Positions 19,626 to 53,266 of a stretch of DNA of 64,000 bases are shown piece after piece. Under the pieces are notes generated by a model. That model was not told where the DNA came from, ran no database searches, and saw nothing but the letters and a program-made list of their open reading frames with translations. A program made the position numbers and the translations under genes. Source of the DNA: a virus. Where the stretch lies: IMG/VR virus record IMGVR_UViG_3300031673_008942, positions 49,637 to 113,636 of that record; one strand, written 5' to 3'. Within the stretch, counting starts at the first letter, position 1, and the number at the start of each line of letters is the position of its first letter.

Positions 19626-20274
19626 TAAGATAGAAATACCTGAAGATAAGGTGGAGAGATTTTGGGTTTTGGTGCTTATGTTTGCTCAAGAGATGGGTAT
19701 TGAAGACCACAAAGATGTTTATCATAATGTTGAGCTTTTGGGAAAGAGTGTGGAAAGACACATTGTTGAAAGGAATCTTCCTATTTCTCCTCAGAAGAAG
19801 GTGAGTCGTTCCAGGGCGACGTTTATTGCTATATTTAAGAAGAGGTATTTACAGCTTACAGATTGTGAGTATACCCGAATCATAACGGCCGCCGAAGGCA
19901 AACTTATAAATCAAATAAATAAAAGCCTCCGAGAGAGAGATTTTGATTGTAATGATTATTTAAGGTGGCTTTTTGAGGATTTTTTACCCGATAATAAGAG
20001 ACTGTGTCCTCCATCTATTAAGCAGATATGTGCCAGATTTTATGTTGACAAATTTTTCTTTGAATATAAAGACGAAGCGAAAGAGCGGAAGACGACCAAG
20101 TTGAAACAATCAGAATCTGAGGATTTGGCTAATAGGTGTAGAGCCTTGGTTCGTGGTCCTGCACAGAAGATTAAGGATGAGATTCGTAAGGTAGTCTCTG
20201 ATTATAAAGATGGAAAAATATTTTTAGAGGATTTGCGTAAAAAAGTTGAAACTTGGGAAGGAGAATATAAATGA
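19612..20274 (+). CDS. hypothetical protein (replication module)
   Basis: 220-aa ORF overlapping both neighbours. Confidence 0.7.
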   Translation: MNEIDKIEIPEDKVERFWVLVLMFAQEMGIEDHKDVYHNVELLGKSVERHIVERNLPISPQKKVSRSRATFIAIFKKRYLQLTDCEYTRIITAAEGKLINQINKSLRERDFDCNDYLRWLFEDFLPDNKRLCPPSIKQICARFYVDKFFFEYKDEAKERKTTKLKQSESEDLANRCRALVRGPAQKIKDEIRKVVSDYKDGKIFLEDLRKKVETWEGEYK

Positions 20275-20858
20275 GTGATGTGATAAATAATATTGAAAAT
20301 TCTTGTGACTCGATGGGCACTATTGATTTGTCAGGTATAAAGCTTGAAAGTGCGGACCCTCGTCTTCTGGATGTGGGAGAGTTAGATATTGACCGGCATG
20401 TTGCCATGCAACCATCCGCAATGGCTTATTATGGTTCTTTGTTAAAAGAGTCTGGTCGAAGTCTTGGTACTTATAAGAAGGATACGGAAAGGTGGGAAAA
20501 GAAACAATTTGCGGTAGCAAAAGCTAATTTGACGGCATCCTCATCTACGAAACCGGTCAAGGAAGAAGTGGAGGCAAGATTTTATGTTGATAATGAAAAA
20601 GAGATTGCCCATAGAGATAAGACTCTGGATGGTCTTCAGAAGCAATATGACCTTCTTTCTGTATGGTTTGAAGCATGGAAGCAGAAGGGTTTCAGTATCA
20701 AAGAGTATGTTGATATTGGCGAGAATGAGCGATATAGCGTGAATGCTAGTCTTAAGGAAAAAAATGTGGGAAATGCGATTACTCCTGAAAAGAAAAAGAA
20801 GATACGGGATATAATAGGTAATAAGAAAAAGCGTCCTCATGGTGGGGTCGAGAATTAG
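20271..20858 (+). CDS. UvsY-like recombination mediator / coiled-coil protein
   Basis: 'DIDRHVAMQPSAMAYYG' followed by a long coiled coil; sits before ssb and recA. Confidence 0.5.
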   Translation: MSDVINNIENSCDSMGTIDLSGIKLESADPRLLDVGELDIDRHVAMQPSAMAYYGSLLKESGRSLGTYKKDTERWEKKQFAVAKANLTASSSTKPVKEEVEARFYVDNEKEIAHRDKTLDGLQKQYDLLSVWFEAWKQKGFSIKEYVDIGENERYSVNASLKEKNVGNAITPEKKKKIRDIIGNKKKRPHGGVEN

Positions 20859-20911: not shown

Positions 20912-21961
20912 ATGTCAGTACTTGACAAAATTGCGAAGTTGAAAGAACGGGCTCCCAAGAGGAACAATTCTAGAATGAGCGGTATTTTCCATGATTATGA
21001 AGATGGGGATAATATCCTCCGATTAGTGGGAAATTTTGTAGAGGTTAGCACCCATTTTATTGCTCCGGTACCTAAGCGGAAGGAGCGTGGACTGTGTCAG
21101 GAAGATGCTTTTCAGGGTGACAATAAGATTCCAAAAGTAATCAATTGTCTTGATTGGGATTTGGAGAAGGAAGAAAAGCGTAAGGTTAAGGTTTGCCCTA
21201 TTTGCAAACTTAATAAAATTTCTTACAAGATAATGGATGAAATAGAAGAAGAAGTTGGTGGTAAGGATAAGCTAGATGATATTGACAATGCAGAGCTTAA
21301 AAAGCAGTATGATAATTATAAGGCTTTGGCTTCTCTTGCTCGTGCTCGTACATATTTGAAGTGGAACGTTATCGACCGTGATAATCCAGAGATTAAGATA
21401 ACATCCGAGGATGGGAAGGAAGAGAAAAAGCTTGGTTTGAAGATTGCAACAGTTGGCTCTGAAGCTTGGGGGGATATTGAAGGCATTTTTGACCAATGTG
21501 GTATCGACATTACTGACCCTGATGATGGTATTGATATTTGTGTCAAGAAAGGGCATAACGGTGCTCGTGTAGCTTACAGTGCTCAGGCTGTGATTGAAGG
21601 AACTGGCTTGAAGACTACTCCTTTTACGGCTGAGGAGAGGGCGTTGGAAGAGCATAATATTTTAGCCATTTGTGGCAAGCAGACTGATGCTGGTTTGGTT
21701 CTTGATGGGCTTCATGGTGATTACCGTGAGCTTTTGGACCTTAATGATGAGGGGGCTGAAGTTGCTGAAGTTGCTGAAGTTGCTGAAGTTGCTGAAGTTG
21801 CTGAAGTTGCTGCTAAGGAAGAACCTAAAGTTGAGACTAAAGTTGAGGCTACTCCTAAGAAAGCTGTGGCTGAAAAGTCCAAGGAAGTTTCTGTTGATGA
21901 CGTCGAAGAAGATGACGAATTCGATGACTTCCTTGATGGTGATGACGAAAAAAAAAATTAA
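20912..21961 (+). CDS. gp32-like single-stranded DNA-binding protein
   Basis: 'NILRLV', 'CPIC', 'WNVIDRD', 'DITDPDDGIDICVKK', very acidic C-tail; adjacent to recA. Confidence 0.75.
   Translation: MSVLDKIAKLKERAPKRNNSRMSGIFHDYEDGDNILRLVGNFVEVSTHFIAPVPKRKERGLCQEDAFQGDNKIPKVINCLDWDLEKEEKRKVKVCPICKLNKISYKIMDEIEEEVGGKDKLDDIDNAELKKQYDNYKALASLARARTYLKWNVIDRDNPEIKITSEDGKEEKKLGLKIATVGSEAWGDIEGIFDQCGIDITDPDDGIDICVKKGHNGARVAYSAQAVIEGTGLKTTPFTAEERALEEHNILAICGKQTDAGLVLDGLHGDYRELLDLNDEGAEVAEVAEVAEVAEVAEVAAKEEPKVETKVEATPKKAVAEKSKEVSVDDVEEDDEFDDFLDGDDEKKN
21755..21808 (+). repeat. perfect tandem repeat (GCTGAAGTT)6, encoding (AEV)6
   Basis: Read directly. Confidence 0.95.
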
Positions 21962-22027
21962 CTCAACAGCCTAAGTCTAGGGTGGAGGTTCCGAAGAAAG
22001 AAGTATCGGAGCCTCTACCCAGGGCTG
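21948..22027 (+). promoter_or_regulatory. candidate -1 programmed frameshift signal (A10 slippery run plus stem-loop)
   Basis: GAA AAA AAA AAT TAA at the ssb end; 15-bp stem 21980-21994/22006-22020 with basal extension 21967-72/22022-27. Confidence 0.7.
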
Positions 22028-22197
22028 ACGTTTCTGTTGAGCTTCCTGAGAATCAAGAAAAGTCCGAATTCAACTGGGAAAATGTTAATCCTGCTGAAGA
22101 CTGGCCATGTTGGACTGAGTATGATTCCTCTGATTCCGAGTGTAAGGAGTGCCCTTTCAAGGCAGATTGTTCCAAAGAGGCTGGTGTTCCACTTTAA
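21949..22197 (+). CDS. -1 frame ORF with C-terminal Cys4 Zn-finger-like motif (probable frameshift extension of SSB)
   Basis: Frame is open from the A-run (previous stop TGA 21943-45); 'CWTEYDSSDSECKECPFKADC'. Confidence 0.7.
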   Translation, partial: KKKLTQQPKSRVEVPKKEVSEPLPRADVSVELPENQEKSEFNWENVNPAEDWPCWTEYDSSDSECKECPFKADCSKEAGVPL

Positions 22198-22215
22198 TGT
22201 ATTTGGAGGTTTAAG

Positions 22216-23448
22216 ATGGCAAAAAAAGAATTAAAAAAATTAACTCGTGAAGAACGCATTCAGAAGATTTGTGAAACTGTCAATAAGGGTCAGTTTGGGG
22301 GTGAGAATAAAGATGCGGTAACTTACTTGGGTTCCAGGGAAGTTAAGAAGATTGGTCGTTTTTGTACCGGGTCTCCAGATTTGGATGCTGCCCTTGGGGG
22401 CGGTCTTCCTGTGGGTAGGTTTATTGAATTATTTGGAGCAGAATCTTCAGGTAAGACCACCTTGTGTTATCACATCATGAAAGAATTTCAAAAAGCTTAT
22501 CCTGAGGATGAGATTGCTTTGATTGATAGTGAATATGCCTTTGATGAGGTGTATGCTGAGCAGATAGGGTTAAATACAAAATATCTTATTGTTAATCAGC
22601 CCGAACATGGTGAGCAGGCGATGAATGTAATGGGGCAGTTGATAACTTTAGGGACTCGGCTGATTATTGTTGATTCTGTAGCAGGTTTAACAACTAAGGC
22701 CGAGATGGAAGGGGAGTATGGGGCTTCTCATGTCGCTCAATTGGCTCGATTGATGAGCAATTCGTTAAAGAAATTGGCGCAAGCGGCTGGAAGAACCGAG
22801 ACCACAATCATTTTTACCAATCAGATGCGTGACAAGATTGGGGTGACTTATGGAGACAAGAGTACGACTCCAGGGGGTAATGCTTTAAAGTTCTATGCTA
22901 GTGTTCGAATTAATCTTAGAAGGATGGATTCCGAGACTGAGACTGTTAATGGGCAAAAGGTTCGTATTAGTAATAGAGTTCGGGCTGAGGTTAAAAAGAA
23001 CAAGACTGCTCCTCCATTTCGTAGTGCCGATTTTCATATTACTTTTGGTATTGGGATTGATGAGGTTGGTGCCTTTTTTACATCAGCTATTACAAAGGGA
23101 ATTATTGACAAGAAAGGTGCTTGGTTTAGCTACGATGGAGAGAATCTTGGACAAGGTCAGGTTGCTTCAATTGAGGCTGTTAGGAATAACGAGATTCTGT
23201 GGGAGTCAATAAAAAATGCGGTCTTGTCTTGCACTGACGAGGAAGCGGAAACGGAAACGGAAACGGAAACGGAAACGGAAGAGCCTGAATCTCCTGAGGA
23301 AAAGCCAAAGGCTCCTATTAAGAAACCATCTATTTCTAAGTCTAAGGAAGGAACCAAGGCCAGCGATTCTGTTGTTGAGAAAGTAGCAGTAGAGGATGAT
23401 GACTTTGATGACCTTCTAGATGATGATGTCGAGGTTGATGATGTCTAA
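22216..23448 (+). CDS. recA: RecA recombinase with long acidic tail
   Basis: 'GAESSGKTT', 'IVDSVA', 'NQMRDKIGV.YG', 'GGNALKFYASVR', 'KVKKNK'-like 'VKKNKTAPPF'. Confidence 0.97.
   Translation: MAKKELKKLTREERIQKICETVNKGQFGGENKDAVTYLGSREVKKIGRFCTGSPDLDAALGGGLPVGRFIELFGAESSGKTTLCYHIMKEFQKAYPEDEIALIDSEYAFDEVYAEQIGLNTKYLIVNQPEHGEQAMNVMGQLITLGTRLIIVDSVAGLTTKAEMEGEYGASHVAQLARLMSNSLKKLAQAAGRTETTIIFTNQMRDKIGVTYGDKSTTPGGNALKFYASVRINLRRMDSETETVNGQKVRISNRVRAEVKKNKTAPPFRSADFHITFGIGIDEVGAFFTSAITKGIIDKKGAWFSYDGENLGQGQVASIEAVRNNEILWESIKNAVLSCTDEEAETETETETETEEPESPEEKPKAPIKKPSISKSKEGTKASDSVVEKVAVEDDDFDDLLDDDVEVDDV
23246..23280 (+). repeat. perfect hexamer tandem (CGGAAA)~6, encoding an ET repeat
   Basis: Read directly. 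Confidence 0.95.
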
Positions 23449-50310: not shown

Positions 50311-50969
50311 TGGAGAGCATTACATGTATAACTCCAAGTTTGCCTGAGCGAGAGGAATTTAGAGGTCAGTGCATTAGATATGTTGAGAGGTTTAGGAGAT
50401 TTAATCCTTATCGTCGAATAGAACATATTGTTGAGGTAGGTGGGACGTTGTCTTCTTTATTGGGAAAGATGCTTCCTAGAGTTGAGACTGATTTTATTGC
50501 AATTATTGAAGATGATGATGTTTATACTGCGGATTATTTAGAGTATCAGATTGGTAATATTAATCACTATGGTGTTAGCGTTATGGGTATGAACCCTACT
50601 GTTTATTATCATTTGAAATGGTCAGCGTATACCGAGATTACTCATAATAATCGAGCTTCTTTATTTACAATTGTAGGTAGGACAAATGTTATTCGGCCTG
50701 CATTGATGTCTATTGTTTCCGAATCTGAGGAAGTTCCTTTTATTGATTATCGTTTATGCCAAGATTTAGGAGATGGGCGTTCTGGGTGTATTCCTCATTT
50801 TAATAAAGCAATTGGTATAAAGCATAATATAATAGGTAGAAGCAGTGGCAAGGGGCATGAGTGGGGGAATGATAGGTTTGAGAGAAAAGATGATGAATTG
50901 GAATTTCTTCAAAATGCATGTGGAGAAGAGTTTATAGAATTTTATAAGAATATGGCGGAGACATTATGA
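50310..50969 (+). CDS. GT-A glycosyltransferase
   Basis: 'ITCITP..PER', 'IAIIEDDDVY..DYL'; start at ATG 50310. Confidence 0.7.
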   Translation: MESITCITPSLPEREEFRGQCIRYVERFRRFNPYRRIEHIVEVGGTLSSLLGKMLPRVETDFIAIIEDDDVYTADYLEYQIGNINHYGVSVMGMNPTVYYHLKWSAYTEITHNNRASLFTIVGRTNVIRPALMSIVSESEEVPFIDYRLCQDLGDGRSGCIPHFNKAIGIKHNIIGRSSGKGHEWGNDRFERKDDELEFLQNACGEEFIEFYKNMAETL

Positions 50970-53266
50970 AAAATAAAGTATTGATATATGACAAAAATGG
51001 TGACCATATTGGACCTTGGTTGAGTGGGCTAATGGGATATTTGGCTTCCAAGGGTTTAGAGCCAGTCGCTATAATGGGTGTTCATAAGGATGAATATTGG
51101 GAATCGACTGTTGCTGGCTATCATCATGTATTTATGTGGAATGGGACGGAGGATGCTTATTTGCCTCTTCGCAGGATTTGTGAGGAGAAGGGAATTAAGT
51201 ATCATATTTGTGAATGCGCATGGTTCCCTCAAAAGAAGTATTGGTATTTTGATAATGAGGGAATAAATGCTTCATCCAGTTTAATGCGAGATGATTTAAG
51301 TTGGGTTGGAGATGCTCAGTTTGATAAGTTGAAAGATATTCGAGATAAACATATTGGTAGTCGAAAATGGAATTATCCAGGCAAGTATATTTTGGTTCCT
51401 TTGCAGTTAGAATGGGATACCAATATTATTCAACACTCTCCGTTTCAGAAGATGCAGTCATTTATTGACCACGTTGAGGAAAGGTTTAAGGGTGAGAGGA
51501 TTATCGTCAAGAAGCATCCTATAGACATGCACACCTATACTACCACCACTGCTGAATTTATTGACTCAGGTTCTTTTTTAGACTACGCTCAGGATGCGAG
51601 CTTGGTTTATTGTTTAACCACGACTTGCCTTTATGAGGCCGCCTTAATGGGTGTTCCTGTTGAAGTAATTGGTGATGGGTATTTGAGGGCTCATGCGGAA
51701 GAATGGCAAAAGACCTTAGCAGCCATGGCGGACAGACAGATTCCTGTCTCTTCTTCGGATTTAGATTATTGGTTGAAGGATATTCTTTTCCCCGAAACTC
51801 TTGTGACGGGGGGAAATGCCAAGGTAAGTGTGGTTATCCCATGTTATAATCAGGGGCAGTATTTGAAAAGAGCAGTAGGGAGCGTTTTAAATCAAACAAT
51901 TAAGGCTGAGATTGTCATTGTGAATGACGATAGTCCTGATGATACAAAGTCTATTTGTATGGAGTTGTTAAAAGACCATCCAGATATTGTTTATGTGGAG
52001 CAAGATAATAAGGGGTTGCCGGGAGCTCGAAATACAGGTTTTAAGAATTCTAACTGTGATATTATTTTCACCTTGGATGCTGATGATTCGTTAGGAGCAT
52101 CAGATGTCTTAGAGAAGTGCCTTTCTCGGATGAGTGATGATATTGGGGTAGTTTATTTGGATTTGAAGAAGATGTCTGATGGGAGCATGACTAATTTCTC
52201 GCTAGATTTAACGAGATTGAAGGCAGAGAATACTATAGCTTCTTGCGCAATGATACGGAAATCTACCTGGGAGAAGGTAGGAGGTTACTGGGAGGAATTG
52301 CGTGAAGGTTATGAGGATTGGGATTTTTGGATAGCCTGTATTGAACATGGAGTGAAGTTTGAAAAGTGCCGAGGAGTCTATGTGTTGGTTGATGATACAC
52401 ATGATGGCAGAATGACTCCATATGTTCAAGAGCCCAAGAATTATTGGAGGTTGTTGGATAAGATAAGAGCTCATCATCCTAAGTTTTGGAATATTAAGGT
52501 AGCGGTCGATAAGTCTTCTAATGAAAATGGAGTATCTGTGGTGATGAGTAGTTACAATCAAAAAAAAACTCTAGAGATGGCTCTTGAGGCAATGTATTTC
52601 CAAGAGGATTTGCCTTTGGAGGTCATTATTGCAGATGATGGTTCGACTGATGGTACCTTGGAATGGTTGGATGAAGTAGGCGACCGATATCCTTTTCCCG
52701 TGAGATATATTACGAGGAAACATACTTGGTATCGTCTGGCCTCGTTGAATAATTTAGCCGCTCAGCATGCAAAAGGAAGAAGGATACTTTTTACAAATGG
52801 CGACCAAGTGCATTGCCCTTCTTCGATTATGTCTCATGGAATGTTGGATAGCAACACTGTTGGTGGTGGCGTTTTCAAAGGCATTAAGGAGCCATATTCT
52901 CATGATGTTGATATTCAGATGGTAAGAGAGTGGGGCGTTTTAGAAGACTTGGCGACAACGAATCCTTCTACGAAAACAAATGTTTCTTACATTGCATCGG
53001 TAGACCCAAACAAAGACCCTATCGGAGTATGGGGAGGCAATGTGAGTGTTCCCGTTGCTCTGTTTGATAAGATTGGAGGGTATGATGAGGGATTTGATGT
53101 AGGATGGGGCGGAGAGGAGAATAACTTGGTAAGGCGTTGTTTGGAGAAGGGTGGTAAAGTGGAATGGGTAATGAAGTCAGTGATTTATCATTTAGACCAT
53201 CCTTTAAAGGCTTATAGCTTGTCACAATTAGGTTCAAAGAGATATGTTGAGATGCTTAATTCGTAA
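50966..53266 (+). CDS. three-domain glycosyltransferase: KpsS/KpsC-like + GT2 + GT2
   Basis: 'ECAWFP..FDNEGINA', 'PLQLEWD' (QxxxD), 'KKHP'; 'VVIPCYN..LDADD..YEDWD'; 'ADDGSTD..FTNGD..WGGEE'. Confidence 0.85.
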   Translation: MKNKVLIYDKNGDHIGPWLSGLMGYLASKGLEPVAIMGVHKDEYWESTVAGYHHVFMWNGTEDAYLPLRRICEEKGIKYHICECAWFPQKKYWYFDNEGINASSSLMRDDLSWVGDAQFDKLKDIRDKHIGSRKWNYPGKYILVPLQLEWDTNIIQHSPFQKMQSFIDHVEERFKGERIIVKKHPIDMHTYTTTTAEFIDSGSFLDYAQDASLVYCLTTTCLYEAALMGVPVEVIGDGYLRAHAEEWQKTLAAMADRQIPVSSSDLDYWLKDILFPETLVTGGNAKVSVVIPCYNQGQYLKRAVGSVLNQTIKAEIVIVNDDSPDDTKSICMELLKDHPDIVYVEQDNKGLPGARNTGFKNSNCDIIFTLDADDSLGASDVLEKCLSRMSDDIGVVYLDLKKMSDGSMTNFSLDLTRLKAENTIASCAMIRKSTWEKVGGYWEELREGYEDWDFWIACIEHGVKFEKCRGVYVLVDDTHDGRMTPYVQEPKNYWRLLDKIRAHHPKFWNIKVAVDKSSNENGVSVVMSSYNQKKTLEMALEAMYFQEDLPLEVIIADDGSTDGTLEWLDEVGDRYPFPVRYITRKHTWYRLASLNNLAAQHAKGRRILFTNGDQVHCPSSIMSHGMLDSNTVGGGVFKGIKEPYSHDVDIQMVREWGVLEDLATTNPSTKTNVSYIASVDPNKDPIGVWGGNVSVPVALFDKIGGYDEGFDVGWGGEENNLVRRCLEKGGKVEWVMKSVIYHLDHPLKAYSLSQLGSKRYVEMLNS

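Follow-up and report, generated by a model that had tools for sequence, protein, structure and literature searches.

A candidate programmed −1 frameshift in a phage gp32-type ssb gene, predicted to append a Cys4 mini-domain

The ssb locus and its recombination-gene setting

The gene considered here belongs to an uncultured phage with a genome of 113,636 bp (~114 kb) and lies within a window of 64,000 nucleotides, the whole stretch that was analysed and to which the coordinates below refer. The ssb gene occupies 20912-21961 on the + strand, stop codon included, and its 0 frame encodes a gp32-type SSB of 349 aa, the short isoform of the scheme developed below. Upstream on the same strand is a gene for a UvsY-like recombination mediator (20271-20858), an assignment that comes from a weak match to phrog_231 (E = 7.6e-4), and downstream, also on the + strand, is a gene for a RecA-family recombinase (22216-23448; Pfam RecA, 2e-79) that has its own SD, GGAGG, at 22206-22210. 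A 5'-3' exonuclease gene follows with a start at 23420, overlapping the 3' end of the RecA gene by 29 nt. The RecA gene contains a 6-nt repeat at 23241-23280 that encodes (ET)n, and the C-terminus of its product is an acidic tail of its own, with a D/F/L motif closely resembling the SSB tail, which suggests a common partner docking on both tails. Neither the SSB nor the Cys4 module described below had a relative among the deposited phage genomes searched by blastn and tblastn, the only match being to recA of a Bacillus phage, and no relative was found among the prokaryote genomes scanned.

The ssb product matches the phrog_1192 SSB family (E = 5.7e-7). Pfam gave no match for this phage's SSB, PF08804 being present on one homolog (P0033), and a search of the A1 profile against PDB sequences found nothing. 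Structure comparison was far more informative. The AF2 model of the SSB (pLDDT 80.6) matched 8gme, 1gpc, and 2a1k with a Foldseek probability of 1.00, and in VIA it aligned to the cores of RB69 gp32 (Z = 11.5) and T4 gp32 (Z = 11.3) over ~180 residues with an rmsd of 3.3-3.8, the next unrelated structural entry reaching a Z of only 3.8. On this predicted model the ssb product is a gp32-type SSB with the gp32 core fold. Residues 281-349 mostly have pLDDT values below 50 and are predicted to be disordered; they include an acidic C-terminal tail, rich in D/E with F/L, encoded at 21896-21949 (+).

A protein search returned 58 SSB homologs, the closest of which are P0002 (96% identical) and P0003 (65%). 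Nearly all of the 58 terminate in KK followed by K, N, S, T, A, or D, with the acidic motif immediately preceding the terminal KK(K/N), and a few longer homologs have the Cys4 motif in frame after KKK. The linker of the SSB is encoded in part by a perfect 9-nt tandem repeat, GCTGAAGTT, present in 6.4 copies at 21755-21812 and specifying (AEV)n. The copy number of GCTGAAGTT differs in P0002, and it is at this repeat that the Logan contigs end in every run.

A slippery A-run and an open −1 frame at the end of ssb

The 3' end of ssb reads GAC GAA AAA AAA AAT TAA. The run of 10 adenines (21948-21957, +) contains two in-phase heptamers of the X_XXY_YYZ form, A_AAA_AAA (21949-21955) and A_AAA_AAT (21952-21958), and the 0-frame stop codon TAA (21959-21961, +) lies directly 3' of this slip site. 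The −1 frame has a TGA at 21943-21945 and is open from 21946 to a TAA at 22195-22197; a shift that joins the two frames is possible within 13 nt only, which is essentially the A-run itself. Translation of the −1 frame gives an extension at 21955-22197 (+) of 80 codons plus stop that is reached only by a shift, and the resulting fused product, the predicted long isoform, has 428 aa. In this predicted long form the acidic tail is kept and is followed by a 36-residue linker and a 45-residue Cys4 module. The sole start candidate in the −1 ORF is a GTG at 21982, which falls inside a 15-bp RNA helix and is not preceded by a suitably spaced SD.

An initial annotation, made from the letters of the sequence, had described this ssb ending with its A10 run and both heptamers, a −1 frame that opens after the TGA and continues for ~80 codons to a Cys4 motif, and a GTG buried in a stem with no clear SD. 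All of these readings hold when checked against the sequence and its translation. It had also raised the concern that an assembly error might conceal a true run of A11 or A8. Logan contigs from four runs, including one that belongs to a different study and habitat, all show A10 with no indel, in a comparison of contigs that would hide minor length variants; the runs listed as containing the phage included no RNA run.

This A10 is the longest homopolymer of the whole 113.6-kb genome. The only other long run of the genome, an A9 at 52560-52568, is in frame within a 766-aa ORF (50966-53266) and showed no sign of recoding or of an alternative frame. A low-depth contig of 527 nt (run X1, record 6) matches both flanks of 21919-22223, but where this genome has 303 letters separating the ssb tail from the start of recA, the contig has 205 others; its source is probably a related phage from the same soil with a different extension.

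Structured RNA downstream of the slip site

A stem-loop that is a candidate frameshift stimulator spans 21963-22040 (+) in the MFE fold. Its core is a 15-bp helix (21980-21994 with 22006-22020) that includes 2 G-U pairs, as had been read from the sequence initially, and the MFE fold of 21940-22040 has an energy of −40.3 kcal/mol (z = −5.8), a stability that 0 of 200 shuffles matched. The outer helix begins at 21963, placing it 7 nt past the first heptamer and 4 nt past the second. The strongest helix starts 16-25 nt past the heptamer in this phage and in several A9 relatives, where the classical spacing of 5-9 nt is given by weaker outer pairs only.

Structure at this position is also common among the related loci described in the next section. 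The 80 nt 3' of the stop had a median z of −3.14 in the relatives versus −0.56 in 165 control windows taken from within ssb (Mann-Whitney p = 9e-8), and z was below −2 for two thirds of slip sites versus 10% of control windows. Covariation was assessed in three subgroups other than this phage's own, with 4-6 sequences each, and compensatory changes appeared in all three: in 7 of 27 pairs of the A3 consensus stem, which starts 8 nt past the heptamer; in 5 of 11 pairs of the A4 stem, which starts 6 nt past it; and in 8 of 24 pairs of the A5 stem, where the strongest helix is further from the heptamer.

The hairpin was also considered as a terminator and rejected, as it has no T-tract and a terminator scan found nothing at the site. 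An Rfam search with the hairpin returned sub-threshold noise only and no known RNA family. The hairpin loop AGAAA (21995-21999) could pair with TTTCT (22031-22035) to make an H-type pseudoknot, a pairing read from the letters that would form at the expense of the outer MFE helix. Upstream of the slip sites, the energy of the duplex with the anti-SD was slightly below that of controls (medians −3.4 versus −3.1, p = 0.004), a difference confounded by the Gly/Asp codons in this region.

Conservation of the proposed recoding site in related phages

DNA of relatives was obtained for 20 loci from IMG/VR and 59 from JGI metagenomes, and the tally given here was made after removing duplicates and truncated loci. 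It comprises 33 nonredundant recoded loci whose SSBs are 41-56% identical; these loci share ancestry, and the counts are not counts of independent events. In 33/33 the ssb stop lies 0-6 nt past an in-phase X_XXY_YYZ heptamer (0 nt in 18 loci, 3 nt in 14, and 6 nt in 1) and the Cys4 module is in the −1 frame, where no stop codon interrupts the linkers of 13 to ~196 residues that separate it from the heptamer. The combination of heptamer, immediate stop, and −1-frame Cys4 seen in this phage is thus kept throughout the recoded set. By comparison, in-phase heptamers within ssb bodies occur at 22 of 7,920 codon positions (0.28%).

The heptamers themselves are A_AAA_AAG (13 loci), A_AAA_AAA (11), A_AAA_AAC (5), A_AAA_AAT (2), G_GGA_AAC (1), and C_CCA_AAA (1). 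Runs of A9-A10 were found in 23/33 relatives, 21 of them being exactly A9, and runs of A3-A8 in the other 10; among the latter, G_GGA_AAC in L035, C_CCA_AAA in L038, and the A6 of L044 (A_AAA_AAC) are all in phase. Between the ssb stop and the module, the −1 frame is devoid of ATG, GTG, and TTG in 16/33 loci, and an ATG is present in only 3/33.

The module was present in every locus with sufficient downstream sequence. In 14 further relatives it is fused to the SSB in frame through a join without an A-run, and these in-frame fusions indicate that the Cys4 module is a true C-terminal domain of this SSB family. Two loci are run-length variants: L045 is fused in frame through A10, its own relatives having A9 and a stop, while in L051 the run is A9 and the module falls in +1, so that inserting a single A would bring it back to the common arrangement. 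Both cases may reflect either misassembly or genuine variation in slip-site length at the DNA level.

A Cys4 mini-domain at the C-terminus of the predicted long form

The module encoded at 22060-22194 (+) was delimited from alignment and AF2 modeling as a C-terminal Cys4 mini-domain with the spacing C-X10-C-X2-C-X5-C and with cysteine codons at 22108, 22141, 22150, and 22168. In alignment A2 (49 sequences) four Cys and one Glu are invariant, and the AF2 model of the module (pLDDT 90) consists of three short helices. Pfam gave weak, motif-level matches only (DDE_Tnp_1_6, 0.011; zf-POGZ, 0.009; Whib, 0.035), and no informative match to the module came from PDB profile, Foldseek, VIA-wide, or ESM Atlas searches. 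The spacing C-X2-C-X5-C also occurs in 4Fe-4S proteins, and judged by its spacing the module would suit an Fe-S site and Zn equally well. The initial annotation had proposed two SSB isoforms, one with an acidic tail and the other with a Zn-finger extension. The two forms and the extension of the SSB are supported, but the label "Zn finger" finds no backing in a Pfam, PDB, or fold match, and the acidic tail would be retained ahead of the linker and module rather than replaced.

A profile search of 1.84 billion proteins gave 106 matches, nearly always with the module at the extreme C-terminus. One group of matches consists of small ORFs of 40-150 aa, produced where gene callers took the −1 frame for a gene of its own, and a second of SSB fusions of 350-450 aa. 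A third contains a few cellular-looking proteins with 2-3 tandem C-terminal copies of the module (P0101, P0111, P0137, P0143, and P0121), which follow either HEAT repeats and a cNMP-binding domain or TPR repeats, with an Mrr nuclease domain in one case. The occurrence of the module on HEAT/cNMP-binding and TPR proteins makes it a mobile mini-domain that is not specific to SSBs. Its position after an acidic tail of the protein-binding kind suggests that its role is probably tethering or partner binding.

Proposed mechanism and alternative explanations

We propose, with a probability of roughly 0.8, that two forms of a gp32-type SSB are made from one gene by a −1 shift at the A-run. Most ribosomes would halt at the TAA at 21959 and release the 349-aa SSB with a free acidic tail, while some would slip one base back by tandem slippage on A_AAA_AAA or A_AAA_AAT, aided by the immediate stop codon and by the stable stem-loop 4-7 nt downstream. 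Shifted ribosomes would translate 80 more codons to give the 428-aa SSB, in which a linker and a predicted metal-binding Cys4 mini-domain are added after the acidic tail. The module would probably serve as a tether, for a partner or for DNA, at the machinery of replication and recombination. Judging by the comparative evidence, the frameshift and its long product very probably exist, and that the recoding is real and selected seems to us highly probable. The same core reading of the initial annotation, two isoforms from a stem-aided −1 shift at the A-run, is supported by the 33 recoded and 14 fused relatives, by the nonhomopolymeric heptamers in two relatives, by the missing starts in half of the recoded loci, and by the structured RNA downstream.

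How the shift is made is a separate matter, since an A-run of this length could also act at transcription. RNA polymerase adding one A would yield exactly the −1 frame with no shift by the ribosome, and the hairpin would then have some other role. The lengths found here (A10 in this phage, A9-A10 in most of the relatives) favor such an explanation, as A9 exceeds what a heptamer needs and such lengths are known to slip at the polymerase (PMC5009743). Against slippage as the whole account are the 10 relatives with A3-A8 that nevertheless keep the phase of the heptamer, including G_GGA_AAC, C_CCA_AAA, and A6, and the conserved downstream structure, for which slippage has no need. Sites such as G_GGA_AAC and C_CCA_AAA and the short runs cannot slip at the polymerase, which points to ribosomal −1 frameshifting as the common mechanism of the family. 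Because the run in this phage is A10, polymerase slippage that puts one extra A in the mRNA probably supplies the same long product here. We therefore regard it as a likely contributor and unlikely as the sole mechanism, an account in which slippage does everything and the ribosome nothing being improbable. Ribosomal frameshifting is fairly likely to be a main route in this phage, and both routes would be expected to feed the long form.

The other explanations dispense with recoding altogether. Gene callers predict many small ORFs of 40-150 aa like the one here, and a GTG does exist at 21982, from which a separate gene of 71 codons could be read with the A-run and hairpin as incidental features, the hairpin acting for instance in the processing or stabilization of the mRNA between ssb and recA. 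Both the two-gene reading and this use of the hairpin are very improbable in our judgment, since that GTG has no SD and lies within the 15-bp helix, the relatives lack any start codon in the frame in 16 of 33 cases, the module's frame is without exception −1 and has no stop codon as far back as the heptamer, and the domain is fused in frame to the SSB in 14 relatives. Slightly less remote, though still improbable, is an origin at the DNA level, in which the true genomes are one A longer or replication slippage yields a mixture of fused and unfused ssb genes. An under-call of one base would likewise place the module in −1, and the run length does vary between assemblies, as in L045 (A10, fused) and L051 (A9, module in +1). 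However, a 0-frame stop within 0-6 nt of the heptamer has a chance of ~13% per locus if the frame is unselected, and its presence in 33/33 indicates that termination there is selected. In addition, short or nonhomopolymeric sites (A6, A7, G_GGA_AAC, and C_CCA_AAA) are not error-prone, and A10 was identical in four runs from two studies, within what contigs reveal of minor variants. The reading that we prefer thus remains a −1 shift at the A-run.

Comparison with known recoded genes

In Escherichia coli, the tau and gamma products of dnaX arise by −1 programmed ribosomal frameshifting at A_AAA_AAG with a 3' stem-loop. The phage ssb gene resembles dnaX in having a heptamer or A-run of lysine codons with a downstream stem-loop, and in the predicted production of a replication protein both with and without a C-terminal domain. 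It differs in that dnaX encodes a cellular clamp-loader subunit whereas the gene here encodes a gp32-type SSB in a phage, in that the shift gives the short form in E. coli dnaX and would give the long form in the phage, and in that a strong upstream SD stimulator is not evident at ssb. Among other dnaX genes, that of Thermus thermophilus undergoes transcriptional slippage at its A9, and in some variants a shift is required for the long product and a 0-frame stop lies directly after the site, a topology shared with ssb (PMC5009743).

Among phages, the main case of frameshifting is the tail assembly chaperone G/GT, and the classes of frameshifted phage genes that the same source names do not include SSB (PMC10885494). 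The ssb locus is like G/GT in its conserved, here predicted, −1 shift near the end of an ORF that would add a C-terminal extension at a set ratio, but G/GT is a morphogenesis gene and ssb a gene of replication and recombination. The usual heptamer of G/GT is also another one, and it lacks a stable stem-loop like that at the phage ssb. With the gp32 proteins of T4 and RB69, the SSB shares the core fold, the acidic disordered tail, and a setting among recombination genes (UvsY-like and recombinase), although sequence identity is only ~13%. The known control of gp32 is translational autoregulation at its 5' end, and to our knowledge gp32 has neither a frameshift nor a C-terminal Cys4 module. The transposases of IS1- and IS3-family elements (A_AAA_AAC and A_AAA_AAG) offer a further parallel in their heptamers, −1 direction, 3' structure, and fusion product. 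These are transposases of mobile elements, with a longer frame overlap and, as a rule, no immediate 0-frame stop.

The conserved programmed frameshifts that we know of in bacteria and phages are few, namely dnaX, the IS transposases, the tail chaperones, and a handful more. A full-text search of the literature, which included the 2016 recoding review (PMC5009743) and the PRFect paper (PMC10885494), turned up no account of an SSB or gp32 gene that undergoes frameshifting. The site described here is a probable −1 programmed frameshift site of a known class in a gene family with no described case in the literature searched, and the same literature describes no frameshift for any phage recombination gene. 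The comparative signal is as clean as in the classical frameshift cases, and it points to a regulated stoichiometry of two SSB forms at the hub of replication and recombination.

Evolution and annotation of the probably recoded ssb genes

In a quick, midpoint-rooted tree of the SSB core, nearly all members of one large group are recoded, and most of the always-fused forms branch outside it. If the midpoint rooting holds, this arrangement hints weakly that recoding arose from a fused ancestor, and the effect of recoding would be that most SSB is made without the module. Since the distant, always-fused relatives have the module on every SSB, recoding may mainly serve to make the module-free version.

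A broader and more tentative picture can be drawn from these observations, though we think it rather doubtful as a whole: an uncultured lineage of large phages, descended from an always-fused ancestor, would set the ratio of its SSB forms by recoding, as cells do with tau and gamma of dnaX, using a previously undescribed tethering Cys4. Under such a scheme the long form would tether a replication or recombination partner to SSB-coated DNA, most SSB being module-free, and the Cys4, which also ends cellular HEAT/cNMP-binding and TPR proteins, could be a redox-sensitive Fe-S site.

Gene callers systematically misannotate loci of this kind as an SSB gene followed by an orphan small ORF. The alignment and profile matches described above define a new and widespread Cys4 mini-domain and make its function accessible to experiment.

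The −1 extensions of some relatives are considerably longer than that of this phage. Those of L003 (3439-4158) and L032 reach ~240 aa, and in some of the long extensions double zinc-ribbon (DZR) domains lie ahead of the terminal Cys4, as they also do in the proteins P0082 and P0087.
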